Virus record (IMG/VR): IMGVR_UViG_3300018432_000001
Location: 1-64,000 of that record
Strand: one strand, 5' to 3'
Length of the DNA stretch: 64,000 nt
From: a virus
Numbering within the stretch: the first letter of the stretch is position 1; every line of letters starts with the position of its first letter. The notes beneath the pieces are model-generated. The model worked only from the letters and a program-made list of their open reading frames with translations. It ran no database searches and had not been told where the DNA came from. Both the position numbers and the translations under genes were made by a program. Shown here piece by piece: positions 20,443 to 58,316 of this stretch.

Positions 20443-21111
20443 TCAATGCCTTTCACTGGTCGCGGGGAGGCGGTCGTAGACGAAGACGATGTCGTGGAGA
20501 CCCCACCACTGCACGGGCGCGTGGTACTCGACCTCGGCCCATTCCGTTTCCAGGATCTTGTGGAGCGCGTCGTCGCCGGTGCAGCCGCCGTCGCCTTCAC
20601 CGATGTAGATGATCCGCTGCCCCGTGTAGGCGCGGACGGCGTCGGCCCCGTCGCTGGTGTTGTAGGGCGGCCACGACAGCAGGAGGGTCACGCCGGACCC
20701 GGCGGCGGCGACCGTGTCGGCCGCTTCGCCGGGGAGCACCGTCGTCCAGTGCTCGACGCCTCGGTGCCAGTGGTTGTCCTCGGGGGTGGCCGCATGCCGG
20801 TCGTAGGTGAGGGTGAACACGCCGCGCTCGGCCAGGAGCCGCGCCCAGTACCCGCTTCCGGCCATCGGATCGATCACCGTGTCCCCGCAGAACCGGAGGA
20901 CAAAATCGACCGTCTCCGGGTCGGAGACCGTCCAGGCGTAGCGCGGGATCAGCTGCTTGCGCAGCTTCGTGGAGGCGACGTTGCGCCAGATGCCGTCGTC
21001 GTCATCGCCGTGGAGCGGATCGCGTGGGAGCACAGCATGCTGGCGCATGAGGTCGTCCCATCCGATGTGGTCCTTGACCGCATCCCAGTAGGGATTCCAC
21101 CGTGCTCCCAC
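20443..21111 (-). CDS. class I SAM-dependent methyltransferase-like protein
   Basis: VIDPMAGSGYW motif I; LLLSWPPY; YIGEG..GCTG. Confidence 0.75.
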   Translation of the reverse strand: MGARWNPYWDAVKDHIGWDDLMRQHAVLPRDPLHGDDDDGIWRNVASTKLRKQLIPRYAWTVSDPETVDFVLRFCGDTVIDPMAGSGYWARLLAERGVFTLTYDRHAATPEDNHWHRGVEHWTTVLPGEAADTVAAAGSGVTLLLSWPPYNTSDGADAVRAYTGQRIIYIGEGDGGCTGDDALHKILETEWAEVEYHAPVQWWGLHDIVFVYDRLPATSERH

Positions 21112-25330: not shown

Positions 25331-25394
25331 ACGGTTTCCTCTCGAACGAAAACCCCGGGCGCGTTCGCGCCCGGGGCCTTAGCGATCAGGGATG

Positions 25395-31793: not shown

Positions 31794-31860
31794 AGGGTGT
31801 CCTTCCGTGAGTGTTCACCGCAGGTGCCCGACCCGAAGGCCGGGCAGCCACGGAGATCAC

Positions 31861-32481
31861 TCACTCCTCGTTGCGCGGAAGAAGCGTGAACGATCGGTGC
31901 TCGTCGATGTCGGCGACGTACATGGTCTGCGTCGACCGGTTGCGAACCGCGATCTGGTACTTGCCCGCAGGCCAGTCGGTCTGTGACGCGATGTTCCCGA
32001 CCGCGTACATGGCCGCCTCGTACCGCTGCGCGGCGATCTGCTCGGCCTCGCTGTCCCGGCGCGGGATGTCGGCCTCGTCCAGGACGACCTCGAACTGGAC
32101 CCCCCGCACCGGGAGGACCCCGATCGTGAACCCCATGGTGCCGGTGACCGGGGCGGCGTGCGAGCGGATGTCGACGGAGTACCAGTTCTCCTCGGGGCGC
32201 GCCTTCGGCGCTCTGGAGACCCGGTCGGATGTCACGCTCGTGCGGCGGCGCGGCCTGGTGCCCTCCTCGTCCTTGATCTTGACGCCGGTTGCGGTGCGCA
32301 CGACGATCCAGCCCTCGTGCTCGCGCTTCTCGCCCACGGGGGCGGCGGCCATGTCGATGTCGGTGCCGTTGAGGGTGACCCTCGTGCTGGTGGTGGTCGA
32401 CCATTCAGGGCCGACCGTCAGGGGCCCGTTGGCGACCAGGCCTCGGGAGTTGCCGCCGATCGTGTCGTAGATGCGGGTCAT
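31861..32481 (-). CDS. hypothetical protein
   Basis: GGAGG RBS. Confidence 0.6.
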   Translation of the reverse strand: MTRIYDTIGGNSRGLVANGPLTVGPEWSTTTSTRVTLNGTDIDMAAAPVGEKREHEGWIVVRTATGVKIKDEEGTRPRRRTSVTSDRVSRAPKARPEENWYSVDIRSHAAPVTGTMGFTIGVLPVRGVQFEVVLDEADIPRRDSEAEQIAAQRYEAAMYAVGNIASQTDWPAGKYQIAVRNRSTQTMYVADIDEHRSFTLLPRNEE

Positions 32482-35301: not shown

Positions 35302-35373
35302 GGGAATGTCTCCTTGTCGTAGCGGATTCGGCGAGCGCACCCCGAGCCGGGGCGGGGTGCGTCACCGGGACCG

Positions 35374-35904
35374 CTACGCCTGCGGTCCGGGAATGTCGCG
35401 GGCTTCAAACCACGCGGTCAGGGTCTCGGTGCCCCAGTTGATGGCGACCATCCTGGCGGCGCCACTCAGGTAGGCCTCGGCCACGTAGTCGAGCCTGAGC
35501 ATCTGCGCGCATCGCTGCTTGTACTCCTTCAGGGCCTGCGCATCCGTCTTTCCCCACGGCACCGGGTTCTCGAACGCGCTGGTGAGGCGCATGTAGATCT
35601 CGTCGTCGAACGGGTCGGTCATGACCTCAGGCAGGTGCGAGGCCTCGCACAGCGACAGCACCTTCTTCATCGACCGCGCCTGCAACAGGCACTGGCGGAT
35701 CGAGTTGTCGACCAGGGTGTTCATGCGGTCCTGCCAGAACTCCTCGGTGTCCCACTCGTGGTAGTTGTTGATCGACTCCGTGAGGTGTGTGAGCAGCCAG
35801 AGCCACCAGGACCGTTCGCCCGCGTGGTTCTCGCCCTCAGGCCAGAACCCGTGCGAGGTGATGTGCGCTTCGGCCGCGACGTAATCGAATGCGGGTGAGG
35901 TCAT
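35374..35904 (-). CDS. hypothetical protein
   Basis: GGAG RBS. Confidence 0.65.
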   Translation of the reverse strand: MTSPAFDYVAAEAHITSHGFWPEGENHAGERSWWLWLLTHLTESINNYHEWDTEEFWQDRMNTLVDNSIRQCLLQARSMKKVLSLCEASHLPEVMTDPFDDEIYMRLTSAFENPVPWGKTDAQALKEYKQRCAQMLRLDYVAEAYLSGAARMVAINWGTETLTAWFEARDIPGPQA

Positions 35905-40214: not shown

Positions 40215-40370
40215 GAGTATCCTCCATCTTGCTGACGTCGGTGATGCCCGCAGGGTGCGGACGTGAGAGCGGCCCCGTTTCAGGCGCACGAAGAAGCCCA
40301 CCCGGCATGTCCCGGATGGGCTTGTTCCTGCGCCCGGCGCTTACGCGCCGGGCTCGGATCGTCTAGTGGT

Positions 40371-43220: not shown

Positions 43221-43274
43221 TAGTTCCACAGCGTGGGACCAGCACCCCCGTGCCTGGTCACCGCTGAAGGACTA
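43221..43274 (-). repeat. intergenic hairpin element (GCAC-GGGG-GUGC apex)
   Basis: TAG...CAGCG-GTGACCAGGCACGGGGGTGCTGGTC...CGCTG...CTA on minus strand. Confidence 0.85.
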
Positions 43275-43883
43275 CGCCTTGGGGTGGTGCGACTCCCCGT
43301 CCTGGCGGATCGGTTCGTGCGGTTCATCCCGAATGCACGCGGCCGACCGCTCGTCGTACACGCTGAATCCGTCGATGCGGGGCTCGTACTGGACGCGGCG
43401 TCCGCAGTGGCGGCACTCCCACGTAGCCGGGTGGCCGCCGGACGCGATCAAGTCGAGCCTGGGTTCGTGGTCCGGGAAGTACTGCTTCACGGTGAGGTAC
43501 CCGCCGTGGTGCTCGGGCTCGCCGGTGTTCGCCGACCGCTCCCGGTTGATGACTCCCGCCGGGTAGTAGCACCGCTGATAGTGGTGGTAGACGTGTCCCA
43601 TCCACGCCTCGGAGCACACCAGTTTCTGCGCCGCGATCAGCTCGGCCGCCTTGGCGCGCACCTCCTCGGGCACGTTCTCGCCCTCGGCCGCGTACTTGAT
43701 CTGCATGTACGCGTCCTCGTCCCAGCGGTTACGCCGCTTGACGTCGACCTCGTACGAGTACCGCAGGTTCACGTGCCCCGGCGGACTCGCGTAGCCGCCC
43801 ATGCCCTGCCCGTCATCGATGATCCGGTGACGCTCTCGCCGGTCGCTCGTGACCGCCTCGATCACAACCGTTCTCTTACCCAT
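43272..43883 (-). CDS. hypothetical protein
   Basis: GAGGAG RBS; CRHC. Confidence 0.65.
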   Translation of the reverse strand: MGKRTVVIEAVTSDRRERHRIIDDGQGMGGYASPPGHVNLRYSYEVDVKRRNRWDEDAYMQIKYAAEGENVPEEVRAKAAELIAAQKLVCSEAWMGHVYHHYQRCYYPAGVINRERSANTGEPEHHGGYLTVKQYFPDHEPRLDLIASGGHPATWECRHCGRRVQYEPRIDGFSVYDERSAACIRDEPHEPIRQDGESHHPKA

Positions 43884-43902
43884 ACACCCGTCACTCCTCT
43901 TG

Positions 43903-43960
43903 CGAATAGGTCTACAGCGGACGGCCGGGCGATGCCCGGCCCCCACTGAGGGCCTACTCG
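43903..43960 (-). repeat. intergenic hairpin element (variant apex)
   Basis: TAGG..CAGTGG...CCGCTG..CCTATTCG. Confidence 0.8.
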
Positions 43961-44520
43961 ACGTAGTCACCTGCGCCGCCCTTGGTGACGTCGAAGACGT
44001 ACACCCACTGCGGATAGCCGGTCGCGCGCCCGGCCACCGACCGAAACGCCGCGCCCTTGCGGTTCATGGACCGCTCGGCCCACTCGGTCCAGTCGAACAG
44101 GTCCCCGATCGCGTTGTTGGAGAGGTTGCCCCAACTGGTGAACCCGCGACGCGTCCCGTCCCAGGTGGCGAGGTGGTCCAGCAAGGAACCCTTCCCCAGA
44201 TCCTCGGGACTGGCGAACTGGTCGCGGCAGAACGTCTCGTTCGATTCCCACCGGCCTTTGAAGCCGCCCGCGTTCATCCATCGGATGACCGCCGAGAACG
44301 GATGCGTGTCATCCGCGCGGCGCCACGCGTGCGCGGCGTCGATGCCGTCCCTGCCGTGGGTCTCCTCCAGCTTGACCGCGAGCGGATGCGGGACGTTGTC
44401 CCACATGCTCGACGTCAGCGTCGGGTTCTCCTCCTGCGCCAGGGCGAACGACAGCTGCCGACCCGACAGCTCGGTCACGTACTGCCGCTTCCACAGCTCG
44501 GTCCTGTATGGATCTTCCAT
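43954..44520 (-). CDS. hypothetical protein
   Basis: GAAGGAG RBS. Confidence 0.65.
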   Translation of the reverse strand: MEDPYRTELWKRQYVTELSGRQLSFALAQEENPTLTSSMWDNVPHPLAVKLEETHGRDGIDAAHAWRRADDTHPFSAVIRWMNAGGFKGRWESNETFCRDQFASPEDLGKGSLLDHLATWDGTRRGFTSWGNLSNNAIGDLFDWTEWAERSMNRKGAAFRSVAGRATGYPQWVYVFDVTKGGAGDYVE

Positions 44521-44522
44521 GC

Positions 44523-44909
44523 CTACGCTCCTTCCTCGGTGATCTCGTCGCACTCCGGCTCGAAGCACGGCACCGCCCACACCTCGACGCCGCGCGTCAC
44601 GTGCGAGAGCTTGCCGCCCCCCATCGGGGAACCTTTCGGGCCGTACTTGCTGGCCCCGCTCTCCATGGCGTCGACGATCTTCTCGATCCCGGGCGTGGAG
44701 ATGCGCGAGTCGTAGAGCTGGCCCGCGTTGCGGAACGCGCGCTCTTCCTCGCCGGTCTGGGCGATCCACGCGAAGTGGTAGAAGTGCCCGGCCACGATGT
44801 TCACCGCGTCGTACACGGTCACGCCGTGGGCGACGTTGTCGGGGTTGGGCATCTCGCCCACCTCGCTGTACCCGACGACCCAGTGATAGGCGGTATAGAT
44901 ACGGGTCAT
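44523..44909 (-). CDS. hypothetical protein
   Basis: GAGGA RBS. Confidence 0.6.
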   Translation of the reverse strand: MTRIYTAYHWVVGYSEVGEMPNPDNVAHGVTVYDAVNIVAGHFYHFAWIAQTGEEERAFRNAGQLYDSRISTPGIEKIVDAMESGASKYGPKGSPMGGGKLSHVTRGVEVWAVPCFEPECDEITEEGA

Positions 44910-44916
44910 CCGGTCC

Positions 44917-45219
44917 TCAGCCTCCGTACCCGGGCATGTCGAGCCCGTCCGTCATCTCCCACGGCTCGGGCGCGAAGGACCCGGCTTCGACGTCCTCGTC
45001 CGCCTCGCCGCGTGCCTCGGCCAGCTCGTGCCGCAGGGTCGCGACCTCGCGCTCCAGCTCCCGGATGCGGTCGGCCTCGTGTGTCTGGCTCGCCAGCCGC
45101 ACCACTGCCACCTCGTCCTCGTTATACGGGTCGAAGTCCTCGCCGGGGATGAACACCGGCGACCCGATCGGGTCCTCGCCGACCGCCTGCCGATACGTCA
45201 GTCGATCCACTGTGCACAC
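44917..45219 (-). CDS. acidic coiled-coil protein
   Basis: AAAGG RBS. Confidence 0.55.
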   Translation of the reverse strand: MCTVDRLTYRQAVGEDPIGSPVFIPGEDFDPYNEDEVAVVRLASQTHEADRIRELEREVATLRHELAEARGEADEDVEAGSFAPEPWEMTDGLDMPGYGG

Positions 45220-45250
45220 CTTTCATCGATCAACTTGAATGCGAAGTATC

Positions 45251-45269
45251 GTTGCTGTTCAACAGCAAC
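45251..45269. promoter_or_regulatory. palindromic operator-like site in AT-rich promoter region
   Basis: GTTGCTGTT-C-AACAGCAAC perfect inverted repeat. Confidence 0.55.
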
Positions 45270-45333
45270 AATCAATCGAACGATTTCTATATCACTGGGG
45301 GTCGGAACACCACCGTGCCCGACCCCCATCTCC

Positions 45334-45837
45334 TTACAATCCGGTGAGCCTCGCGAAGTTGTCGAAGGCGTACACCACCGGCGACCCCGAGGGATTGACG
45401 CTCGCGAGGAACGCGAAGTGCGCCGGGAATCGGTCCTCGTGTTCGACCGCGTACCCCACCGACTCCCAGATCGGGCTCACGTCGCTGATTTCCATGTTCG
45501 GGAACCCGAGCTGTTCGCGCTGGCCCCACTTGTCGAACCAGCGCTGAAACTCCCCGGCGAACTGGCGCTCGGCGAACTCGGCCATGTCGGTGAAATCCCC
45601 GAGATAACCGCCCGCCAGCATCCACCGCACGGTGTGCACCGCAGTCGCACCCGAACCCCTGTTGCCGCGCTCGATGTACACCAGCGCAGCGCTGGCCGCG
45701 AGCGGCCCGTGCTGTTCGAGCAGTTCCATCACCGCCGGATGCGCGCCCTCCCACTGAGGGCCCGCTTCCCAGTGCTCGCCGAGCACTTCCTGGAACATCT
45801 TCTTGGACAGTGTGATCACGTCTTTGGCTACTTCCAT
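45334..45837 (-). CDS. ArdA-like antirestriction protein (tentative)
   Basis: YLGDFTDMAEFAE...IWESVG...VYAF resembles ArdA C-terminal domains. Confidence 0.4.
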   Translation of the reverse strand: MEVAKDVITLSKKMFQEVLGEHWEAGPQWEGAHPAVMELLEQHGPLAASAALVYIERGNRGSGATAVHTVRWMLAGGYLGDFTDMAEFAERQFAGEFQRWFDKWGQREQLGFPNMEISDVSPIWESVGYAVEHEDRFPAHFAFLASVNPSGSPVVYAFDNFARLTGL

Positions 45838-45850
45838 GACATCCCTTCCT

Positions 45851-46162
45851 CTACCCTTCGGTGAGTTCCTGCAAGACCAGCGCGGACACCGCCAGCGCGG
45901 CCCGCGTCATCGCCTCGGACATGTCGCGGATGCCGACGCCGTACGTCGGAGCCGTCGTCGGCAGGCTCACGACCTTCCACGCGTCGTGGTAGCGCATGCC
46001 CGCCGTGGGCCCGGTCTCGCGCTTCTGGAGCTCGAACGACCAGAGGTCACCCTTCTCGTCCGTGTCCAGGAAGATGCACGCCCGCACCTCCGCGAACGAC
46101 GCATCGATGATCTCGACCGGGTCGTTCATGGTGTCGTCGTCCACTCGGTACAGCTGTGCCAT
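45851..46162 (-). CDS. hypothetical protein
   Basis: GAAGGAG RBS after hairpin. Confidence 0.6.
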   Translation of the reverse strand: MAQLYRVDDDTMNDPVEIIDASFAEVRACIFLDTDEKGDLWSFELQKRETGPTAGMRYHDAWKVVSLPTTAPTYGVGIRDMSEAMTRAALAVSALVLQELTEG

Positions 46163-46180
46163 TCGTGCTCCTTCGCTCAT

Positions 46181-46241
46181 CGGCTAACACCACGGCCGAG
46201 ACCAGCACCCCCGTGCCTGGTCACGACCGAACTCCTAGCCG
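46181..46241 (-). repeat. intergenic hairpin element
   Basis: 25 nt identical to the 43237-43261 core. Confidence 0.85.
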
Positions 46242-46648
46242 TCGGCCTTGATCGCCTTCCCGTCCGCGACCCCGTCGCGATACGCGCTTGCCACATGGGA
46301 GGCGACCTGCTCGGCCGCCTTCCACTCGTGCTGGTACATCGGCGCACTGGGGTTGACGCCCGCGTTCCTCACCTGCTCCCGCATCGGCCCCGGAATGAGG
46401 TCACCCGTGAGGCCTGCGCCCTCGACCACACCGCACAGGAACGCCACCACGCACAGCGCCCCGGTGGTCCGATCGTCGTAGGTCAGGGCCCGCTGATCGG
46501 AGATGTACCGGACCCCGTGACCGAGGTTCGTGCCGATCGAGAACCACGGTGTGCCCGTGACCTTCTCGACTGCGCGGATCACCGCCTCCACCTCATCGCG
46601 GTGCCACTCGAAGCGCTCCCTATCCGGGTCCTTCTTGACGCCGCTCAC
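46235..46648 (-). CDS. hypothetical protein
   Basis: GTGA-coupled. Confidence 0.6.
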   Translation of the reverse strand: MSGVKKDPDRERFEWHRDEVEAVIRAVEKVTGTPWFSIGTNLGHGVRYISDQRALTYDDRTTGALCVVAFLCGVVEGAGLTGDLIPGPMREQVRNAGVNPSAPMYQHEWKAAEQVASHVASAYRDGVADGKAIKADG

Positions 46649-46926
46649 GCGCTCCCCTTCCCCTGCTGCTGTTCGATGACGCGTTCGGCCGCCTTCTCGC
46701 ACCGCTTGCACAGCCGCTGGTCGAACAGCAGGGCCTTGTACCGGACCTGCTTCAGGGCTTCCTCGACCGTGGCGAAGACCTCGGCGCCATAGCCCAGGTT
46801 CGTACCCCCGGGCCGGTAGGAGAGGGCCGCGCACTTCATGACCGGCTCGGTCTCGCGGTCTTCGGGTACCTCCTGAATGTGGGTCACTCGCGGGCTGTGC
46901 CTGAGCCGGTAGCTTCTCTTGCCCAT
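46645..46926 (-). CDS. hypothetical protein
   Basis: GAAGGAG RBS; CKRC. Confidence 0.6.
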   Translation of the reverse strand: MGKRSYRLRHSPRVTHIQEVPEDRETEPVMKCAALSYRPGGTNLGYGAEVFATVEEALKQVRYKALLFDQRLCKRCEKAAERVIEQQQGKGSA

Positions 46927-46942
46927 GCCTTACTCCTTCCGA

Positions 46943-47000
46943 ATAGACACTCAGCGCGGGACCAGGCACCCCCGTGCCCTGGTCACCACTGATCGCCTAC
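46943..47000 (-). repeat. intergenic hairpin element
   Basis: TAGGC..TCAGTGGTGACCAGGGCACGGGGGTGCCTGGTC..CGCTGA.TGTCTA. Confidence 0.85.
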
Positions 47001-47407
47001 TGTCCGGGCCTGCTCAGCGCGGCGAGCCTGCGCATCTCCGCGATGCCCGCGTCACGTCCGGCTTTCAACCCGGGCATGTAGTCGGAGATGTTGGCTACGT
47101 CGTGCCACTCCTCGAACCGCTCCCGGTACCGGCCAAGCGTCGGGTTGTCGTACGTCTTGGTGATCGTGCCGCCTTCCAGCCGCTGCACCGAGTACGCGAA
47201 GGACGCCGGACCCGACAGGTAGGCGTCCTCGTTCTCGTCCTCGGTGTCCTCCGGCCCGACGTAGACCATCTCGGTGAAGTCGTACACCTCAACCCGCCAC
47301 TGGCAGGTTTCGACGCCGGTCCCGTTGCCGTCGGCCGCAAGCCACGCCTGCGTCCCGTCGACAACCTCGCCGTCCGGGTTGAGGTACCAGGTTTCCGTTG
47401 CACTCAT
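46997..47407 (-). CDS. acidic hypothetical protein
   Basis: ORF from MSATET. Confidence 0.6.
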   Translation of the reverse strand: MSATETWYLNPDGEVVDGTQAWLAADGNGTGVETCQWRVEVYDFTEMVYVGPEDTEDENEDAYLSGPASFAYSVQRLEGGTITKTYDNPTLGRYRERFEEWHDVANISDYMPGLKAGRDAGIAEMRRLAALSRPGQ

Positions 47408-47450
47408 GGGATTCTCTTGCACTCCTATCGATTCGCTAGGAATTTGGGGG

Positions 47451-47822
47451 TTAGAGGCACGCCTCCACCCGTTCGAGCGCGACACCCATCGCCGCCTCGG
47501 CCGCGCCGCTGGTGTAGTGCTTGCTGCGGTACGCCGCCATCTCCTCGGCCGGAATGACACCACCCGCGAGGTTGTGCACGGGCTTCCCCCGCCCGTAGTA
47601 GCGGCTCGCTTCGAAGGTGAACGTCGGCCACACCGACTCGTCGCCCGCCTCGTGCGCCGCGATCGTCTCCTCGCTCGCCCACCCAGTGATCTGGATGTGC
47701 ACGAGGTCGCCGTCGACCTTGTAGATCCGGTTCTCACGCCCGACCTTCCAGCCCGGGAACTCCCGCAGCTCGTCCGAGGAACGCTCGGCAGTCTCCATCG
47801 TCAGCTTGAGCGTGCTACCCAC
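47451..47822 (-). CDS. hypothetical protein
   Basis: coupled ORF. Confidence 0.6.
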   Translation of the reverse strand: MGSTLKLTMETAERSSDELREFPGWKVGRENRIYKVDGDLVHIQITGWASEETIAAHEAGDESVWPTFTFEASRYYGRGKPVHNLAGGVIPAEEMAAYRSKHYTSGAAEAAMGVALERVEACL

Positions 47823-48258
47823 GCGGCGCCCCCTTCAGGTTCGCGTACTCGACCCAGGTGTAACCCGACTCGACCCGGTAGGGCCGAATCAGGTTCAGCA
47901 CCTGCTGGAACTTCTTGATCGGCATGTCCCCGTAGTCCACGAGGATGCGCATTTGGGCGTACCCGCCGGAGTCGACGAACCCAGCCTCGACCCCGTCCTC
48001 GGTGAACCGCTGCAACGCCTCGACCAGGGCGATCTCGCGGCGACCGGCCGCACCCTCCCACCCGTTGAACGTGACGTCGTAGAACGGCCAGGTCGCCGTC
48101 CACTCCAGCGTCAGGCACCCGCGCCGCTCCGGAATCGACAGCGTCCGCTGCGGGAACGCCTTGATCAGCGCCGCGAACGACGCCAGCTCGTTCTCGTCCG
48201 TGGACGGGAGCGAATCGAGCAGTTCGTTGAACGCTTCCCGCGTGTCCTTCTTACCCAA
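47815..48258 (-). CDS. hypothetical protein
   Basis: AGGAGG RBS, TTG start. Confidence 0.6.
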   Translation of the reverse strand: MGKKDTREAFNELLDSLPSTDENELASFAALIKAFPQRTLSIPERRGCLTLEWTATWPFYDVTFNGWEGAAGRREIALVEALQRFTEDGVEAGFVDSGGYAQMRILVDYGDMPIKKFQQVLNLIRPYRVESGYTWVEYANLKGAPRG

Positions 48259-48294
48259 ACCGAGCCTCCTAATGTGAGGAATCTACAGCCTGTG

Positions 48295-48372
48295 TGGTTC
48301 GACAGACCCCACGAACCGGCCCGCACCCCCGTGCGCGGACCGACCATGGGCAACCAGCGAACAACCCGGTTA
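48295..48372 (-). repeat. intergenic hairpin element
   Basis: GCACCCCCGTGC core at 48323-48334. Confidence 0.75.
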
Positions 48373-48723
48373 CGCCTTCGACGCCCGCTCCTGCCGCTCC
48401 TTCACCGCCTCGGCATCCCGGCGTCCCTCGGTCTCGGCCTCACTGTCGAACCGGCCCGAGGCGTGAAGGTATTCGAGCACCGCTCGCGTGTCCGGATCGG
48501 ACAGGTCGACGCCGAACACGGCCGCGACCCCGCCCAGATAGGACAGGGCCGACGCCGCACCCGGACCCCCGAGCCAGAGCCGCCCGCGAAACCCGCCGTG
48601 GTTCGGGATGTAGTGCTTGCCCTTCCCGTCGCCGGGATTGTTGATCTGCAACCAGTCCCGGTTGCCGGTCGCCTCGCATACCGGCAACAGCACCTGGTGC
48701 ACTCTCGCTGATGTCAACCGCAT
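48370..48723 (-). CDS. hypothetical protein
   Basis: GAGG RBS. Confidence 0.6.
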   Translation of the reverse strand: MRLTSARVHQVLLPVCEATGNRDWLQINNPGDGKGKHYIPNHGGFRGRLWLGGPGAASALSYLGGVAAVFGVDLSDPDTRAVLEYLHASGRFDSEAETEGRRDAEAVKERQERASKA

Positions 48724-48740
48724 CGCTCACCTCATGTTCT

Positions 48741-48959
48741 CTACTTGCTGGTGACGCCGTACTCGGCGATCTCCTCGGGACGCAGCCCCGCGAGCCACGC
48801 ATCGCACTCGGCCTCGAACGCGTCCTGTTCGAACGGAATCGTGGCGTGCCCGACGCCGTCAGTGGTGGTCCAGACGTTGTTGGTGGCGACGGCGTACTCG
48901 CCGCCCTCCCACGTGAAGGTCACTCCCCGACACGAGTACGACAGTTCCTCGTCTCCCAT
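48741..48959 (-). CDS. small acidic protein
   Basis: AGGAGG RBS. Confidence 0.6.
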   Translation of the reverse strand: MGDEELSYSCRGVTFTWEGGEYAVATNNVWTTTDGVGHATIPFEQDAFEAECDAWLAGLRPEEIAEYGVTSK

Positions 48960-48970
48960 ATGCGTGCCTC

Positions 48971-49486
48971 CTACTCGTCGTCCTCTTCGCTGTCATCGCC
49001 GCTGTCGTCCTCGTAGTAGGACTTCACGGCCGCGAGGATCGCCGCCGCTTCCGCTCGGCCCTTCCACGACCCGGTCCCGTCCCAGATGAAGTAGTGACTC
49101 AGCTCCTCGGGCACCGCGCGGAGCAGCGCGGTCTTTCCCAGCGGCTCGGCGAGCACCCCCAGGGTGTGCACCTCGTTGATGATCGACAGGCCCCACCCGT
49201 TCGCGAACTTGTGGATCTCGTGAGCGCCCTTGTCGTCAACCCACGTGTCGGACGGCTTGAACTCCGCACCCATGCTGGGTCTCCCTTCGGTATAACCGGT
49301 GACCTTCTCGCTCGGCAGGATCTCGCGGATCTTGTCGATGACTAGTTGCTCTCCCTCTTCATGCCCGGATGCCCACCCCTGGTCGAACCCGGCGGCCCAC
49401 TTCTGGTTTCTGACAGTGGCGCCGACCTCGTACCCGTCCACGAACTCGCGCAGGGCATCGAGCATTTCCTGATTCCGGATCTTCAC
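48971..49486 (-). CDS. hypothetical protein with acidic tail
   Basis: GGAAAGG RBS. Confidence 0.6.
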   Translation of the reverse strand: MKIRNQEMLDALREFVDGYEVGATVRNQKWAAGFDQGWASGHEEGEQLVIDKIREILPSEKVTGYTEGRPSMGAEFKPSDTWVDDKGAHEIHKFANGWGLSIINEVHTLGVLAEPLGKTALLRAVPEELSHYFIWDGTGSWKGRAEAAAILAAVKSYYEDDSGDDSEEDDE

Positions 49487-49508
49487 CGGCGCCCTTTCCT
49501 TCCTCCTG

Positions 49509-49685
49509 CTAGTCGACCGCCGTGTGCACGACCGGCTTCCCGTCGAGCTCGGCCAGCGTCACGCTGATACGCGGGTACTTCTTGCGGCCCTTGTACAGCT
49601 CCCGCGCTTTCACGCTCGCCTCATACGAGGACTCGGCCTCGATCTCGTGTCGCTTGCCCTCCACGAACGCGATGTATCCGTTCAC
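49509..49685 (-). CDS. small phage protein
   Basis: NGYIAF..GKR.EI.A.SSYEA...LAE..G..VVHT; RBS after hairpin. Confidence 0.65.
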   Translation of the reverse strand: MNGYIAFVEGKRHEIEAESSYEASVKARELYKGRKKYPRISVTLAELDGKPVVHTAVD

Positions 49686-49699
49686 GCGAACCGTCCTCT

Positions 49700-49763
49700 C
49701 GAATAGACCTTCAGCGGACGCGCCTGCGCCATCGGCGCTGGCGGACCACTGGACACCTACTCG
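49700..49763 (-). repeat. intergenic hairpin element (variant apex)
   Basis: 22 nt identical to 51374-51395. Confidence 0.8.
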
Positions 49764-49906
49764 CGTGCCCGTACCCGGGCTGCGAACTCCCACCACCGCT
49801 GATTGCGGCGCAACCTTTGCGCCGCAACGAGCCGGGCGATATCCGCATCCGAGAGCGGGAGCGCCACCGTGATGCCTTCCATCTCGATCACTTCACCCAC
49901 TGGCAT
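49757..49906 (-). CDS. small hypothetical protein
   Basis: ends at hairpin TAG; start uncertain. Confidence 0.45.
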   Translation of the reverse strand: MPVGEVIEMEGITVALPLSDADIARLVAAQRLRRNQRWWEFAARVRARE

Positions 49907-50441
49907 GCACCGCACCCTCGCGAACCCTCCTTTCGAGCGCGCACAGCACACCACCGACCGCGTCCCGGATGGGCTGGTGCTTGTAGTTGTGCTCCCGCGC
50001 CTGGGCCAGGGACTTACGCCACTCGTTGAGCGCGTCCTGGTAGACCCCGTACGCGAACAACCCGTGCGTGTCCTCTCGGTAGTCCTCACGCTTGGGCGCT
50101 TCCACGGGACCCCGATACGCGAGGTCACGCGCCGACTTCGGGTTGAACCGCCCGGCCGGAGCAACCCGGGTGTACAGGTGCTGGTTCACACCGAGCGTGG
50201 GAACGTCACTGAGGACGTGCCCCCACAGGTACTCGACCGTGACCGGTTTCCCCGGCCAGTACGACGCCATGACGACCGCCCGCTTGCCGTACCCGTGATG
50301 CTTCACGGTGAACGTCGCCTCCCACGTCTTCCGCTCGCGCGGGTTCACGTTGCAGACGTCGCGGTACGACTCATCGAACACCGATTCCTCCACTACCCAA
50401 TCGCCTTGCGACCAGGTATTGAAGTAGTACAAAACGCCCAT
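49893..50441 (-). CDS. hypothetical protein
   Basis: GAGAGG RBS. Confidence 0.6.
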   Translation of the reverse strand: MGVLYYFNTWSQGDWVVEESVFDESYRDVCNVNPRERKTWEATFTVKHHGYGKRAVVMASYWPGKPVTVEYLWGHVLSDVPTLGVNQHLYTRVAPAGRFNPKSARDLAYRGPVEAPKREDYREDTHGLFAYGVYQDALNEWRKSLAQAREHNYKHQPIRDAVGGVLCALERRVREGAVHASG

Positions 50442-50461
50442 GCCGTTGCCTCTCCTCTCGC

Positions 50462-50941
50462 TTAGCTGTGCGCGTACACCACGCCGTCCTCACCCGCGTA
50501 CAGGTGGAACCCGCCGTACGGCTGGCAGTGGGCGGTGAGCCGGTCACCGACCTCACCCATGCCCCGGTCCCAGAACCCGGCGCCCGCCCTGTTGCGGGTG
50601 AGCACGAAATCGTGACCGATCTGCCCGGCCCCGACCGCGACGACATCAACCCACATCGCGTGGCAGAAATCGGCGACCTCCCGCGTGAACTCCACAGCGA
50701 CCGCTGCGTCGATGTCCTCGCGTTGGCACATCGCACTGAGGGACGCGCCCTCTACGTCCGCTGACGAGGACCACAGGGCCGTATCCAGACCCGTCCACGC
50801 CACGTCCGCGACGTAGTCGAAATCCAGATCCCACTGCGAGCACGCCACGCATGCGGCATTGTCGACCTCGCTGGTGTGCTCAGCCCACCACGCGTCGACC
50901 GCCGCATGCACCAGGTCGTAACCCGTTACCGCACCCGTCAC
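50462..50941 (-). CDS. conserved phage protein (GHDFxLTRNxxGAGFWDR)
   Basis: recognisable motif, function unknown. Confidence 0.7.
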   Translation of the reverse strand: MTGAVTGYDLVHAAVDAWWAEHTSEVDNAACVACSQWDLDFDYVADVAWTGLDTALWSSSADVEGASLSAMCQREDIDAAVAVEFTREVADFCHAMWVDVVAVGAGQIGHDFVLTRNRAGAGFWDRGMGEVGDRLTAHCQPYGGFHLYAGEDGVVYAHS

Positions 50942-51360
50942 CGGCCCTCCTCAGTCTTCCGTTCGGGCATCGGGCCGCGCTCATCACTGAACGTCATGAC
51001 CGTGCTGATGCACCGCACGCCCGCGACCTGCCGACTCGTCACCTCGTGACCGAACCCGGGGTAGCGGATGCGCACCCGGAACGGGCTGTCTTGCCCGGGG
51101 TGGTGGTGGATGTACTCGACCACGGCAACGGCGGTGTTCCGCTCCCACTGCCCCAGGTCACGCAGGTACTGGTCCCACGTGATCTCAAGAGGATGACCGG
51201 ACGAGGCGAAATCCACCAGCACCCGAGCATCCTCAATCGGCAAGCCCGTGATCTGGGCGTACTCATGCGCCAGATCCGCCAGCGCAGGCCAACCCAGACG
51301 CTTCGCACCGTCGACCACTCGCGTCCCTTCCCACGTCGCATCCGTGAGCTTTTCCCGCAT
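50938..51360 (-). CDS. hypothetical protein
   Basis: GAGGAGG RBS after hairpin. Confidence 0.6.
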   Translation of the reverse strand: MREKLTDATWEGTRVVDGAKRLGWPALADLAHEYAQITGLPIEDARVLVDFASSGHPLEITWDQYLRDLGQWERNTAVAVVEYIHHHPGQDSPFRVRIRYPGFGHEVTSRQVAGVRCISTVMTFSDERGPMPERKTEEGR

Positions 51361-51376
51361 GCACCCTCCTCTCCTC

Positions 51377-51439
51377 GAATAGACCTTCAGCGGACCCGCC
51401 GCACCCCCGTGCGCTGGCGAACCACTGTGACGCCTACTC
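51377..51439 (-). repeat. intergenic hairpin element
   Basis: core at 51401-51412, CAGTGG/CCGCTG lower stem. Confidence 0.85.
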
Positions 51440-51997
51440 CTCTTCGACCTTGACCGCGTCCTCGTACAGGACCGAGCCCATGCCTTCCTTGCGGTAGTGG
51501 CAGATGGCCTCCAGCACCGTCTCCAGTTCATCGGGCGTCATGTCCGCGTACCCGAACTGGATCACGACCTGCGCATACCCGCGCTCATCGCGGTAGTACG
51601 CCTCCACTGTCGGGTTCGTGACGTCGCCCTCGTAGTAGGCGAACTTGGCCGCCTCGATCAGTTCGTCCTCGTTCTCACCGGCCCACCCCACGAACCCGTT
51701 GAACCGCAGCTCCTCGGCGTTGTCGACCCACTCCATGACCAGACCGGGCGGGCACGGGAACGCCTCGATCATCTCGGTTTTCGCTTTCGTGTCCGGGTGC
51801 TGCTCGTGAGCGATGGCCTTGACCACCGAATCGGGCACGCCCAGCTCGGACAGGACCCGCTCGGCCGTGTCCTCCTCGTCTAGCTCAGCCTCCCCGCGCA
51901 GGTACTCGTCCGCGAGCAGCCGGTACACCAGCTCCGCAGCACTCCGCGCGTTCTGCCGCTGCGGGTCGTTCCCCAACCCGCTCCACACGTCTGCCAT
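51434..51997 (-). CDS. acidic hypothetical protein
   Basis: GAGGAGG RBS. Confidence 0.65.
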   Translation of the reverse strand: MADVWSGLGNDPQRQNARSAAELVYRLLADEYLRGEAELDEEDTAERVLSELGVPDSVVKAIAHEQHPDTKAKTEMIEAFPCPPGLVMEWVDNAEELRFNGFVGWAGENEDELIEAAKFAYYEGDVTNPTVEAYYRDERGYAQVVIQFGYADMTPDELETVLEAICHYRKEGMGSVLYEDAVKVEEE

Positions 51998-52010
51998 CTG
52001 CGCCTCCTCG

Positions 52011-52370
52011 TTAACTTGTCAACAGCTTGTCGGCCTCGTCCAGCGCGACCTCCCACGCCAGCATCTTGATCAGCTCACCGGGCATCGCAGGACGCAACCG
52101 GTGATTCTCGATCACCCCCGAGCACCGCGCCATCGCCTCGGCGTCGTCGTCCGGGGCGAACACCTCGACCTCGAACCGGTACATCCCGCCAGGGGTCACC
52201 CCGCGACGGGTCCCGAACCCGATGTTGTCGGCCGCGAACACCGTCACCGCGCACCACCCGCCGTTAGCGAGCGCGTACTTGCGCGTCTGCGCCCACGCCT
52301 CCCACATCCCGTTGAACTTCTCGTCCCGGGTGGTGCGCCCGATCTCGGCCCCGTCGTGCAACTGGCTCAC
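52011..52370 (-). CDS. hypothetical protein
   Basis: GTGA-coupled. Confidence 0.6.
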   Translation of the reverse strand: MSQLHDGAEIGRTTRDEKFNGMWEAWAQTRKYALANGGWCAVTVFAADNIGFGTRRGVTPGGMYRFEVEVFAPDDDAEAMARCSGVIENHRLRPAMPGELIKMLAWEVALDEADKLLTS

Positions 52371-52855
52371 TCGCTCACCTCCTCGACGCCGACCGCCGCG
52401 AACAGCTCGGACCGCAACCCGGCAGAGACGCCGTCGGGGTGCAAGCTGTACTCGAACCGCTGATTTTGCTCGTACTGGTACTGCTCGTAGGCGTACACCC
52501 ACACGGTTCCCAGCGGCTGCGACTCCCAGCCGGGAGACGTGGACGCCTCCCAGAGAGAATCCGGGTACACGTTCCAACCCTTGAGCGCGTCCCCGAGAGC
52601 GACCGCAAGCGTGTCGCACACGCAGCACCCGTCCTTTTCGGAGCCGCACTCGCAGTCCTTCTCGACCAGTTCCCAGACGACCGCGAGCGTGCCCAGCTTC
52701 TCGGGCTCGTCCGCGTCCTCTTCCCAGCGGGCGAACTCGGTCCGGTACATGCGCACCACGGGCAGCCCGGTCTCACCCGCGCGGATCTCGCGGTGCTCCT
52801 CGGGCGTGATCTTGTCGAACTCCTCATCAACCCGGAGCTCTTTCAACTCCCACAT
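52367..52855 (-). CDS. acidic Cys-cluster protein
   Basis: GAGGAGG RBS; CECG...CCVC. Confidence 0.65.
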   Translation of the reverse strand: MWELKELRVDEEFDKITPEEHREIRAGETGLPVVRMYRTEFARWEEDADEPEKLGTLAVVWELVEKDCECGSEKDGCCVCDTLAVALGDALKGWNVYPDSLWEASTSPGWESQPLGTVWVYAYEQYQYEQNQRFEYSLHPDGVSAGLRSELFAAVGVEEVSE

Positions 52856-52877
52856 GTGAGACCTCCTCTCAAATCAG

Positions 52878-52945
52878 TAGTGTCCTAGAAGGTTGTGACA
52901 ACCCGCCCCCACCCCCGTGGGAGACGGGCTCTCGGAACCCGCTAC
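52878..52945 (-). repeat. intergenic hairpin element with compensatory apex
   Basis: CCAC-GGGG-GTGG instead of GCAC-GGGG-GTGC. Confidence 0.8.
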
Positions 52946-53070
52946 AACCAGCAGTGACCCGCCTTCCGGAACCACCGCGTATGACGCCACAGACCCCAAC
53001 CCGTCCGCGCCCGGAACCGCACCAGCCACCCGCCGCACTGCTTGCAGCGGCGCCGCTCCCACCGCTTCAC
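52942..53070 (-). CDS. 42-aa Arg/Trp-rich peptide with CxxC
   Basis: Not in track; MKRWERRRCKQCGGWLVRFRARTGWGLWRHTRWFRKAGHCWL; GTGA-coupled, ends at hairpin. Confidence 0.55.
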   Translation of the reverse strand: MKRWERRRCKQCGGWLVRFRARTGWGLWRHTRWFRKAGHCWL

Positions 53071-53333
53071 GACCCGGCCCCCGCTCTCGGCAGCTCCACC
53101 AGGTACTCGGTCAACTGCCCATACCCGCTGTTGTACGTCGTGTCACGGGAAGTCCCGAACACCCGGACCATGACCAGCTTCCCGGCCCCGACCACCGCGC
53201 CAGCCTCCACCAGCACCTCACGCCACGGCCGCTCCTGGCCCTCCTCCTCGTCGCCGGACTCGCCCCGGTAGATCACCCGACCCACCAGCGAACCCCGGTC
53301 ACGGTGCAACCGCACCAACTCCCGACCCATCAC
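53067..53333 (-). CDS. hypothetical protein
   Basis: GAGGAGG RBS after hairpin. Confidence 0.55.
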   Translation of the reverse strand: MMGRELVRLHRDRGSLVGRVIYRGESGDEEEGQERPWREVLVEAGAVVGAGKLVMVRVFGTSRDTTYNSGYGQLTEYLVELPRAGAGS

Positions 53334-53347
53334 GGACCTCCTCTCAC

Positions 53348-53414
53348 GTTGGGAACCTTGCGGCAACCCGGCACGCACCCCCGTGCGCCTGCCGGGCACC
53401 GTAAAGCGCCCTAC
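53348..53414 (-). repeat. intergenic hairpin element
   Basis: core at 53375-53386. Confidence 0.85.
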
Positions 53415-53457
53415 TTGCGGACCCGCGCACCTTCGTACGCAGGGTTAACGACCCGCT

Positions 53458-54018
53458 CTAGAGCCCCTGCCGCTGCGCCTGATCGGTGAAATTCCACTCG
53501 TATTCCTCGTGTGTGAGGTCCGACGTGGGGTAGCCCTCGCTACTCAGGGCGTCGCACAGCGCAGCGGCGTCCTCGTACGCCAGGCCGTCCGCCTGCCCCC
53601 AGTCGACGCAGTCCATGGTCGCGGTCTCGTCCACGGGGGGCAGGTCGTCCTCTTCGGGAGACACGTACTCCGGTTCCTCCCTCGGTTCCTCGGGAGACAC
53701 GTACTCCGGAGCGCTTGCGTCCCCTTCGGGGGTCGCGTCGCCTGCGGGCACGGGGCCGTCCACCGTGGCGGGCGCGTCGTCCACCGCGACGGTGGTATCC
53801 ACCTTGACGGGTTCAGGCACTGTCACCGCCTCGGGCGTGGGCACGGGCATCCTCTCCGGCACGGCACCCAGGGCATCCCGGTCGCCGCGCTCCGGTGCGG
53901 GGGCCACCGCCGTGTCCGCCACGGCCACCGCGTCAGGCGCGACCTCCGTTCCAGCACACCCGGCCAGAACCGCGAACGCGGCAAAGGTGAGGCACACCCC
54001 CATAAGTCGATTACGCAT
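53458..54018 (-). CDS. acidic Pro/Ala-rich lipoprotein
   Basis: LAGC lipobox; duplicated PEYVSPEE. Confidence 0.7.
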   Translation of the reverse strand: MRNRLMGVCLTFAAFAVLAGCAGTEVAPDAVAVADTAVAPAPERGDRDALGAVPERMPVPTPEAVTVPEPVKVDTTVAVDDAPATVDGPVPAGDATPEGDASAPEYVSPEEPREEPEYVSPEEDDLPPVDETATMDCVDWGQADGLAYEDAAALCDALSSEGYPTSDLTHEEYEWNFTDQAQRQGL

Positions 54019-54034
54019 CGTATGTCCTTTCTTG

Positions 54035-54095
54035 GTTGGAAACCTGACGGAAACCCGCCCCCACGCCAAGGACGGGCTCCCGTCAAACGTCCAAC
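54035..54095 (-). repeat. intergenic hairpin element (variant apex)
   Basis: TTGGA..TGACGG.AGCCCGTCC/GGGCGGGTT.CCGTCA..TCCAA then RBS. Confidence 0.7.
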
Positions 54096-54151
54096 GATCA
54101 GGCGCGTCGCGGGCCGCCCCCGAAGGGACGAGACGGACTCACACCTGGCTC

Positions 54152-54508
54152 TCAACCCAGGAGCACCGCACCCGCAGTCGCCCGCGTCGTCGGCACATGC
54201 CGACCCCACCGCAACCGCACCGTGTGGTCCTCGCGCCCGTACTCGGCGAGCACCACCGGCTCCAACTCCTTCGGGCACCCGCGCTTGAACATCGGCGCGA
54301 CCGCGCGCACCGGGTCATCGGCGAACTCGCCCCACGGCAGCGTCAACCCACCCTGCAACGGATTCACCGCCCCGAACGCGAACGCCTCGCACTCCCCGTC
54401 CGGAGCCGCAACCCGGTCCTCCTCGCGCAACTGCTCGAACAGCCACCGCACGAACTTCGCGTTCGTCTGCGCCTCCACCTGAACCTCAACCCGACCCACA
54501 CCAACCAC
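54152..54508 (-). CDS. hypothetical protein
   Basis: GGAGG RBS. Confidence 0.55.
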   Translation of the reverse strand: MVGVGRVEVQVEAQTNAKFVRWLFEQLREEDRVAAPDGECEAFAFGAVNPLQGGLTLPWGEFADDPVRAVAPMFKRGCPKELEPVVLAEYGREDHTVRLRWGRHVPTTRATAGAVLLG

Positions 54509-54523
54509 GAGCCAACCTCCCTC

Positions 54524-54946
54524 TTACAGCTTCTCGATACGAACCGGAACCGACCCGAAGTCGCGCACGAAATGCTCGCTCCACGCCAGCTCCATCACGC
54601 CCTTGAACGAGTCCTCCTCGGGCCGGTGCGAGGACACACCCCACTTCGGGTGCGTCACCTCCAACGACCAGCCCTGATAGGACAACTCGCCCCGTGAGGA
54701 CATCACCGCGTTCACGACGATCTCCACACCCAGATCCGGCGCAGCCGTCTGCACGAACGCGGCCCGCTTCCGACCCGTGAACGCGCCCTCAGGCTTCGCG
54801 TTCCCCTGCTTGTCCTTCGGAGTCGTCTCCTCCAGAACATCCGCGACCACCCGCGCGAGCTCCTTACGGGACCCGTGCGGCATGACCACCGACGCCAGCG
54901 CACCCGCGATCGTCTTCACATGCGACGTCGTCAACCGATGCACCAT
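54524..54946 (-). CDS. hypothetical protein
   Basis: GGAGG RBS. Confidence 0.65.
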   Translation of the reverse strand: MVHRLTTSHVKTIAGALASVVMPHGSRKELARVVADVLEETTPKDKQGNAKPEGAFTGRKRAAFVQTAAPDLGVEIVVNAVMSSRGELSYQGWSLEVTHPKWGVSSHRPEEDSFKGVMELAWSEHFVRDFGSVPVRIEKL

Positions 54947-54949
54947 TCG

Positions 54950-55162
54950 CTACACCTCCTCACAATGAACAGACGAGTACACCTCGCCAGAGCGCGCGAT
55001 CTCGGCCGCTTCCACGAACAGCGTCGCGTTGAAACGCGGGTTGTCCGCAATGAACACCTCGATCATTGCCGCCAGCAGGTCATAGAACACCTTGTCGGGC
55101 ATCTCCACACCCGCCACCAACGCAGCGAACTGCTCATAGGTCGTCTTGCTCATACGCGGCAT
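54950..55162 (-). CDS. small phage protein (DNPRF motif)
   Basis: GAGGAG RBS; FIADNPRFNATLF. Confidence 0.65.
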   Translation of the reverse strand: MPRMSKTTYEQFAALVAGVEMPDKVFYDLLAAMIEVFIADNPRFNATLFVEAAEIARSGEVYSSVHCEEV

Positions 55163-55176
55163 GACAACTCCTCTCC

Positions 55177-55234
55177 TCGTGAAAACACTCAGGCCCCACC
55201 CGGAAACCCGGATGAGGCCTAAGCAGGTTCACGA
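55177..55234 (-). repeat. intergenic hairpin element (variant apex)
   Basis: TCGTGAA..AGGCCTCA/GGGGCCT..TTCACGA then GAGGAG. Confidence 0.65.
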
Positions 55235-55437: not shown

Positions 55438-55940
55438 GACCTGCCCTTTCACCGAACTAGTTGAAACTTCAATGACTGAAAACCCGGGGAAACACCCCGA
55501 ACCCAGGCACGCCAAGCGCCCCGGCCACCCGAAGACGGCCGGGGCACCTCACCCGGTTGAACAAACTTCACGACTCGGGAGAATGCCGCTCCCGACCAGC
55601 ATCAACTTTGAAATTAGTATGAAATTAGCTCGAACCTACAGAAACGGCCCGTTCAGTGACGTGATTGCCGCTCGCCCACCAGACACCCGCTTATCCGGGG
55701 TGGGGCCGCGCCCGCTCTATTCCACCTACTAGCGACCTGCCCTCTGAGGACAACTCACGCCCACCGATACCTCAACCCGCAAGGGGAGGCACCCGATGCG
55801 CATGAAAAATACTCAGAGACCCGGACCCATGACCCGCAACCCGCTAGACAATGTCCAGATTGTCCCGAATTTTATATTTCACGTGCGGCCCGTTCATGTT
55901 GCGAGCGTGAGCAGGGCGTGCGTTTTGTCCGTTTTGGGGA

Positions 55941-55970
55941 CACGAAAAAAGGCCGCCCGTGGGCAGCCTG
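55941..55970 (-). terminator. intrinsic terminator
   Basis: AGGCTGCCC-AC-GGGCGGCC followed by TTTTTT on minus strand after 55987 gene. Confidence 0.75.
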
Positions 55971-58084: not shown

Positions 58085-58316
58085 TCCACATGAGAGGCAG
58101 CTATACGCGCGGCTAGTGCCAGCGCGCCACTACACATAATCCACAAGCGACGCTCACCAATTCCACACAGGACACATCCACATGAGACACGCTCGCCTCC
58201 ACAAAGGACGTCCACACAGGACAGAGCGAAGATCATGCATCCACAAGCGACAGTCCACACAGGATCAATCCAAAATCGACAGTCCACATCGGAGGGCCGA
58301 TCCGTCCACAGTGGAC
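58085..58316 (+). repeat. array of ten co-oriented TCCACA hexamers
   Basis: at 58085, 58140, 58162, 58177, 58198, 58211, 58240, 58254, 58283, 58305. Confidence 0.85.

Follow-up and report, generated by a model that had tools for sequence, protein, structure and literature searches.

Conserved hairpins between the genes of early operons have long been known from phages. The closest described examples are the early RNase III signals of phage T7 (R0.3, R0.5, R1, R1.1 and R1.3), which are irregular hairpins of about 50-70 nucleotides (nt) with an internal loop, placed between co-directional early genes. These signals lie on a read-through transcript, carry neither a promoter nor a U-tract, adjoin the ribosome-binding site of the downstream gene, and resemble one another. 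Two-turn helices with internal loops are the classical RNase III substrate and also a classical obstacle for 3′ exonucleases. Here, an array of twelve hairpins is described from a 64,000-nt stretch of viral DNA (positions 1 to 64,000 of IMG/VR record IMGVR_UViG_3300018432_000001, referred to as the window), where they separate short genes on the minus strand between about 43 and 55 kb. They share the structural and positional traits of the T7 signals, in that hairpins of about two turns with internal loops or bulges lie between the genes of one transcript, and there is about an even chance that, like the T7 RNase III sites, they serve to process or stabilise a read-through early transcript. 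They differ from the T7 signals in having no sequence similarity to them, an actinobacterial host and a cleavage that is putative, in carrying the stop codon within the helix in most copies, and in a build of three tiers with two families of lower-stem sequence.

Two further phage systems invite comparison. The start-associated sequences of cluster K mycobacteriophages (SAS) and their extended form (ESAS) likewise occur in actinophages, in one orientation and in the non-structural genome half only (PMC3203893; PMC11373665), and consist of imperfect inverted repeats whose spacer varies, placed immediately ahead of a conserved motif that contains the Shine-Dalgarno; function is putative in both cases. 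The study of phage Adephagia reads ESAS as a SigA promoter with a fixed 17-18 bp spacing plus an operator-like repeat (PMC11373665). The present array has no 13-bp SAS (GGGATAGGAGCCC) and no 17-bp inverted repeats with SigA -35/-10 hexamers at fixed spacing, and identity with ESAS/SAS was rejected. Unlike those elements, it has UUCG plus a purine-rich Shine-Dalgarno as the motif behind the hairpin, a covarying stem of variable length as the spacer, and a stop codon included in the element. The promoter(early)-stem-loop (PeSL) elements of T4-like phages are also repeated stem-loop modules between small variable early genes, and go with indels between close relatives (PMC2839356; PMC4122927). 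Identity with PeSLs was rejected as well, for these require an early promoter, while 41-59 kb of the window holds 0 promoter-like sites and only a few nt separate hairpin and Shine-Dalgarno. Some indel boundaries do lie at the elements here, with no excess over other junctions (p=0.40).

The hairpin array and its gene block

The genome of the source virus measures 142,477 bp at 66% G+C and has direct terminal repeats; the window is its initial 64 kb. Phages of Arthrobacter, Curtobacterium, Streptomyces and Microbacterium have portal proteins with 25-32% identity to that of the virus, which is therefore an actinophage, uncultivated and of a new lineage; its candidate hosts are soil Actinomycetota. 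In a comparison with 50,697 phage records, megablast with the 12.5-kb hairpin region gave no real match, and blastn with a single element gave nothing real. Two relatives in IMG/VR, G001 (141 kb) and G002 (138 kb), match the region in patches at 73-91% identity; comparisons of three genomes are of these two and the source phage, all complete.

The genes are on the minus strand over a run that starts near 55.5 kb and reaches 29 kb or lower. Within it, the block at 42-56 kb comprises about 32 short genes whose junctions fall into two classes: some 19 are tight (-46 to +22 nt, many with ATGA/GTGA overlaps) and 12 are long (70-133 nt). These are the sole long gaps in the block, and each carries a hairpin on the coding strand. 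All 11 hairpins of the original prediction are present on that strand, and a twelfth (45296-45328) was absent from its list. The hairpins have 14-27 pairs (median 22) and are far more stable than dinucleotide shuffles (z -2.75 to -7.4). A whole-genome scan of raw minimum free energy was uninformative, as a genome of 66% GC folds everywhere (mean -23 kcal/mol per 70 nt). The hairpins of the array, followed by two outlying copies, are as follows; scores in bits are those of the covariance model described below.

55187..55224, minus: hairpin that follows the array's first gene; 17 pairs, perfect or wobble, -32 kcal/mol, z -7.4; 98.5% identical in G001
54096-54151, minus: second hairpin beside 54035..54095; 21 pairs, starting at the upstream TGA
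54035..54095, minus: class B hairpin; lower stem GGACGUUUGACGG / CCGUCAGGUUUCC, 26 pairs, z -6.8, 3′ end 17 nt before the start codon
53352..53413, minus: class B hairpin; apex GCACGGGGGUGC; opens with a UAG at which, in this phage, the upstream gene does not end
52882..52949, minus: three-tier hairpin; apex CCACGGGGGUGG; UAG stop of a 42-aa gene pairs with CUA; orthologues in G001 and G002
51380..51436, minus: class A element; UAG stop, internal loop, CAGUGG/CCGCUG stem, upper stem, CUA, UUCG, Shine-Dalgarno; 62.9 bits
49704..49759, minus: class A element; different apex, GCGCC-GAU-GGCGC; 57.5 bits
48294..48365, minus: long three-tier hairpin; 27 pairs, apex GCACGGGGGUGC, 7 nt past a TAA stop; 96% identical in G001 and G002
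46944..46999, minus: class A element; bulged G beneath the CAC-GGGG-GUG apex; 72.1 bits; two copies in G002
46185..46237, minus: class A variant; middle stem CGGUCG/CGGCCG with two compensated pairs; 60.6 bits
45211..45328, minus: hairpin and spacer module; GGGGGUCGGG...CCCGACCCCC (45296-45328), then an AT-rich spacer, about 85 nt long, that holds a second small hairpin
43907..43956, minus: class A element; upper stem GGCCGGGC-AUC-GCCCGGCC; 61.4 bits
43221..43274, minus: class A element, CAGCGG/CGCUG variant; 68.2 bits
35318..35378, minus: outlying copy of like design; UAGCGG...CCGCUA, Shine-Dalgarno 15 nt before the start codon; z -6.5
31808..31863, minus: outlying hairpin of like geometry with a TGA stop; UGAGUG...CACUCA, then Shine-Dalgarno

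Six copies (at 43221, 43903, 46181, 46943, 49700 and 51377) form class A, in which the order of parts is UAGG, an internal loop of 3-5 nt, CAGYGG, a variable upper stem-loop, CGCUG, a short loop, CCUA, UUCG and the Shine-Dalgarno. The predicted CAG(C/U)G...CGCUG stem is found in five copies, and in two more it is replaced by the compensated variants CGGUCG/CGGCCG and CGGUG/UGCCG. Class B is defined by the lower stem GGRCGYUUKACGG / CCGYMAGGUUYCC; it includes the hairpins at 54035 and 53348 and copies in G001 and G002. The seven shared apices of the original prediction are borne out exactly, as CACGGGGGUG (CACGGGGGTG) occurs seven times, always on the minus strand and within 43.2-53.4 kb, and the decamer CACGGGGGTG has no further copy anywhere in the 142,477-bp genome. 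The compensatory swap at 52909 is likewise real, the closing G-C of the apex being changed to C-G. The GCAC-GGGG-GUGC apex is found atop three kinds of lower stem. Sharing among copies is mosaic in other ways as well, since an identical 25-nt block (upper stem) is common to 43221 and 46181 and an identical 22-nt block to 49700 and 51377. The module at 45211-45328, which recurs at junctions in the relatives (three times in G001 and twice in G002; loci L057 and L058), is probably an internal terminator/promoter unit.

The claim that in most hairpins the upstream UAG stop pairs with a downstream CUA is just correct, at 7 of 12 (43221, 43903, 46181 weakly, 46943, 49700, 51377 and 52878). The pairing at 52878 became evident once a gene missing from the gene calls was recognised:

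52942-53070 (53070..52942), minus: uncalled 42-aa gene; basic CxxC...HC peptide, conserved in the source phage, G001 and G002

The GTG start of this gene overlaps the upstream TGA (GTGA), changes in G001 and G002 are synonymous, and the TAG stop lies within the 5′ arm of hairpin 52882-52949; with the gene in place, the apparent gap falls from 211 nt to 86 nt. The peptide, with its CxxC...HC motif, may be described as zinc-ribbon-like. Among class A copies of the relatives, the UAG of the element is the true stop of unrelated genes in six of eight, and the stop-in-stem geometry is seen again at 35318-35378, in other sequence, and at 31808-31863, where the stop is TGA. This geometry is the most distinctive trait of the hairpin family. 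The Shine-Dalgarno was correctly predicted to stand directly behind the hairpin, whose 3′ end, in 10 of the 12, is separated from the start codon by 17-26 nt.

The 30 array genes tested are all short ORFans: none of them matched Pfam, 0 of the ten larger ones matched PHROG, and a protein atlas gave no functional lead for any array gene tested. Such a run of short ORFans is typical of an early host-takeover block. Several of the genes are kept in all three phages. By clustering, the minus-strand genes 51434-51997 and 47815-48258 are distant paralogues within a single protein family, and the family of gene 44568..43954 has a second, diverged copy in G002 (32% identity, tblastn).

Covariation and strand of the fold

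The pairing of the elements was examined in an alignment (A2) of 14 class A copies, six from the source phage and eight from G001 and G002, for which a three-helix structure was written. In A2, 92% of the cells are paired, compared with 31-46% after a shift of the partners by 1-3 columns; double changes occur in 9 of 20 pairs, and the observed scores were reached by 0 of 500 shuffles. The variable upper stems are of unrelated sequence and all are self-complementary, and a UUCG-looped upper stem differs between G001 and G002 by a compensated change of A-U to G-C. In the middle stem a U-G wobble is kept in 11 of the 14 copies, and the 46181 lineage has CGGUCG/CGGCCG instead.

A covariance model (R1) built from the class A alignment and run on the three whole genomes gave class A copies 44-74 bits on the coding strand versus 15-40 on the opposite one, the corresponding ranges in the source phage being 57-72 and 15-31. 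It detected nothing beyond class A except a weak match at 35316-35376 (24.8 bits), which has orthologous matches in G001 and G002 and shows the same UAG...CUA-plus-Shine-Dalgarno design. The claim of a strand-specific fold is upheld by folding energies, the coding strand being the stabler in 13 of 13 hairpins tested, by 4-16 kcal/mol in nine of them. Best orthologues of the hairpins differ by 35 one-sided substitutions at paired sites, of which 25 keep the coding-strand pair versus 14 expected under a 2:1 transition bias (binomial P=1.7e-4); pairing on the other strand is kept by just 17 of the 35. A double-stranded DNA operator would impose no self-complementarity on the variable stems. From the retention of pairs on one strand and the self-complementarity of unrelated upper stems it therefore follows that selection acts on a fold of the transcribed strand in single-stranded form, RNA in the simplest case, and not on a DNA operator.

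Rfam covariance models gave 0 matches at E<=1 in 42-58 kb, and pattern scans of metagenome and species-genome collections added one class A copy (on a 1.7-kb contig, L066) and no host or prophage copies, with none in 185,579 species genomes. The description of the system as uncharacterised suits the family, which has no Rfam match and is not found in cultured phages, but not the kind, which is already known.

Proposed processing of a read-through transcript and its rivals

Two features of the junctions bear on how the hairpins might act. The first is the rarity of U-tracts. Conventional intrinsic terminators are present in the genome, with GC stems of 8-11 bp followed by U4-6:

55950-55969 (minus), near 25352 (minus) and near 20905 (minus), and elsewhere in the genome near 107934 (minus), 115975 (minus) and 126258 (plus): conventional terminators

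The terminator at 55950-55969 sits directly upstream of the array. The original prediction had stated that the hairpins lack U-tails, which is true of 11 of the 12; the remaining one, 55187-55224, is followed by the U-rich run GUGUUUUCA and is therefore a possible attenuator. The second feature is the lack of promoters, as a sigma-70-like scan of 41-59 kb gave 0 sites and the few nt from hairpin to Shine-Dalgarno cannot accommodate one. Downstream genes therefore depend on read-through. With no room for a promoter and no U-tract, a role on a long read-through transcript is therefore the most economical reading of a conserved, strand-specific, RNA-type fold between co-directional ORFans. To that extent the claim that a long transcript is processed or stabilised into separately translated units stands, with RNase III as the putative agent.

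In this model, host RNA polymerase would make one or two long polycistronic early transcripts, within which the module at 45211-45328 would be the likely internal terminator/promoter. Irregular helices of 20-27 pairs, or about two turns of double-stranded RNA, would sit between each stop codon and the next Shine-Dalgarno, and a double-strand-specific endoribonuclease, most simply the RNase III of the host, could cut in or near the internal loop or at the foot. The upstream unit would then be left with a protective 3′ hairpin directly after its stop codon, and the downstream unit would begin a few bases ahead of its ribosome-binding site; whether or not cutting takes place, the helix would block 3′-5′ exonucleases. 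The length of the helices (median 22 pairs, with an internal loop) fits RNase III substrates such as the T7 early sites. A search for a T7-like RNA polymerase gave no match, though the control was likewise silent, and a sub-threshold match resembling sigma region 4 lies at 135,963-136,079.

Several observations weigh against processing by RNase III. An RNase III gene was sought in the three phage genomes and none was found. The lower stems are conserved in sequence as well as in pairing, in two families, and RNase III reads sequence only weakly; such conservation fits a sequence-specific partner better. The stop codon inside the helix is unneeded for processing and hints at a link with translation. 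Finally, the coding strand is G-rich (GC skew), which favours G-U pairs and inflates the strand asymmetry.

The hairpins might alternatively be tail-less intrinsic terminators or attenuators, each stopping a fraction of the polymerases so as to produce a decreasing gradient of early expression. They are GC-rich and directly follow stops in an actinobacterial context, 55187-55224 has a U-rich tail, and a precedent is reported from phage phiC31, at early-region hairpins that lack poly-U. Purified mycobacterial RNA polymerase, on the other hand, requires a U-tract and passes U-less hairpins even with NusA or NusG (PMC3993855), and the virus employs canonical U-tract terminators elsewhere while 11 of the 12 hairpins have no such tract. 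The stems are twice the length of terminator stems, and without promoters about nine serial terminators would starve the distal genes. Termination of this sort is thus unlikely for the array as a whole, and the form of an intrinsic terminator, a short GC stem with an immediate U-tract, was not found in it, the U-rich tail at 55187-55224 standing apart.

Where the stop codon lies at the 5′ foot and the Shine-Dalgarno just past the 3′ foot, the fold would bring the sites of termination and initiation together, and translational coupling becomes conceivable. A terminating ribosome would open the two lower tiers (about 15 nt), free a standby site and be handed over across a 70-nt gap. Pairing between the stop and the 3′ foot is seen in 7 of 12 hairpins, likewise at 35318-35378 and, as TGA, at 31808-31863; the UAG is the real stop of unrelated genes in six of the relatives' eight class A copies, the distance from foot to start is nearly constant, and the two lower tiers do measure about 15 nt. 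In most copies, however, a ribosome would have nothing to unmask, for the Shine-Dalgarno is free there, and it is of equal strength behind hairpins and at tight junctions; five hairpins begin 7-59 nt past the stop, and genome compaction alone could merge stop with stem. Coupling is accordingly held to be rather improbable. The same slight chance is given to its extended form, in which the helix would act as a ribosome bridge that couples termination to the next initiation across about 70 nt, a bacterial counterpart of shunt-type re-initiation, and after cutting would also serve as a 3′ protective cap. If true, this would make the element a portable stop-hairpin-RBS (ribosome-binding site) adaptor behind which any inserted open reading frame could be expressed. 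Two related ideas were examined. Amber suppression or read-through of the UAG was rejected, there being no suppressor transfer RNA (tRNA) among the nine tRNAs and gaps of 70-73 nt that put the next reading frame in varying frames. Sequestration of the Shine-Dalgarno by an alternative fold was seen in single copies (for example at G002 locus position 6622) and is not general.

The sequence conservation of the lower stems in two families, together with the fixed U-G wobble of the middle stem (11 of 14), would be explained if an RNA-binding protein or endoribonuclease encoded among the phage's own ORFans read these stems and processed or regulated the operon, in the manner of Cas6/Csy4 or RegB. 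Several array genes are conserved in all three phages. No candidate emerged, with 0 Pfam and 0 PHROG matches and no protein-atlas lead among the array genes tested, and a phage-encoded partner is given a slim chance. An RNase III-like match in an array gene of G002 (E=0.013) was dismissed as noise.

The original prediction also proposed the hairpins as crossover points for cassette exchange. As recombination linkers, stop-hairpin-RBS modules would supply homology for the swapping of cassettes, much as promoterless PeSLs might, with any role in RNA secondary. The three genomes are strongly mosaic at the level of genes, and some breaks in homology coincide with hairpins: identity to G001 rises from below 50% to 96-100% exactly at 55187-55224, and identity to G002 falls away sharply at the 3′ end of 43907-43956. 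Certain single genes with a hairpin on either side are present in one genome and absent from another, with a chimeric hairpin in G002 where one such gene is missing, and the identical blocks of 22-25 nt occur in mosaic combinations. A comparison of junctions does not support the claim, however, since adjacency is kept in 6 of 23 comparisons at hairpins and in 12 of 32 at tight junctions (Fisher p=0.40), so that it is lost as often where there is no hairpin. In the best-resolved indel, G002 has an extra 177-aa gene (L058 9425-10062) after the orthologue of 46944-46999, inserted between this class A hairpin and the orthologue of gene 46926..46645, and the gene is flanked by the Shine-Dalgarno linker (AGGAGYAAGGCAT) as a 13-nt direct repeat and not by hairpins. 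This is a clean cassette indel by microhomology. Hairpins tend to stay put while the genes on either side change, and the units of exchange are genes rather than hairpin-bounded blocks. Linkers are also disfavoured by the selection that keeps G-U pairs on one strand, for which recombination has no need, and this explanation is considered improbable.

Two families of DNA palindromes were compared with the array. Integron attC sites resemble it in being imperfect hairpins at the 3′ end of promoterless cassettes, with conservation at the foot, a spacer left unpaired, a bulged base and a terminal structure that varies. The predicted analogy breaks down on the defining features of attC: a tyrosine recombinase is absent, the ends are UAGG/CCUA and not RYYYAAC/GTTRRRY, and the pairing is maintained by way of G-U, which places it at the RNA level. 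The repetitive extragenic palindromic (REP) sequences of enterobacteria and pseudomonads are also imperfect palindromes located outside genes after stop codons. According to work attributed to Newbury (1987) and to Liang, Rudd and Deutscher (2015), REPs reportedly stabilise upstream mRNA, and nearness to the stop codon is said to matter for translation. REPs are present in hundreds per chromosome, in both orientations (BIMEs) and with RAYT transposases, unlike the elements here, which were not assigned to REP/BIME in view of their roughly 13 copies in one orientation, the absence of PF01797 (Y1 transposase) and the lack of copies in species genomes. PF00589 (tyrosine recombinase) and PF01797 were both absent from the three complete genomes, with positive controls. 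A role as DNA-level sites, either ESAS-like promoter/operators of the cluster K type or mobile palindromes such as attC and REP, might be suggested by inverted repeats that stand, with a spacer of variable length, just ahead of a conserved start-associated motif (as in ESAS plus SAS), by the attC-like three-tier shape with its bulged base and by the REP-like 5′ (G)TAG, but it is highly improbable given that there are no promoter hexamers, that the spacer varies by at least 12 nt and covaries as a stem, that G-U changes preserve one strand only, and that neither a tyrosine recombinase nor a Y1 transposase in the three genomes nor a copy in the 185,579 species genomes was found.

Neighbouring features and significance

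The array is flanked by two non-coding regions of note. Upstream of it, 55440-55950 (minus) is a 500-nt leader with several hairpins, including the terminator-like GGGGUGUUUCCCCGGGUUUUC, and AT-rich stretches; it is likely an early promoter and attenuator region, though the sigma-70 scan gave no promoter. Downstream, a 156-nt gap at 40215-40370 (minus) contains three strong hairpins totalling -82 kcal/mol, is conserved in G001 and G002, and may mark the end of the early block. Farther upstream, TGTGGA occurs ten times on one strand inside 225 nt (58085-58310, minus), in the low-GC non-coding interval of about 56.9-58.3 kb where the GC skew switches sign and transcription probably diverges; this iteron-like array is a possible origin or regulator-binding array. 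Elsewhere, an RtcB RNA ligase gene is located at 14507-15673 (minus; Pfam E=6e-119), and the genome has 9 tRNA genes, six of them clustered near 125 kb.

The elements are of use in annotation, having led to the missed 42-aa gene, and they are compact parts for polycistronic expression in high-GC hosts. Such processing of early transcripts has been characterised for T7; the same cannot be said of Actinomycetota phages, for which it is still disputed how U-less hairpins act in termination and in the formation of mRNA 3′ ends. If the reading of the hairpins as intercistronic processing or stabilising signals holds, they would represent a covarying RNA signal that turns a 10-kb early transcript of ORFans into separately stable, translatable units in large actinophages.

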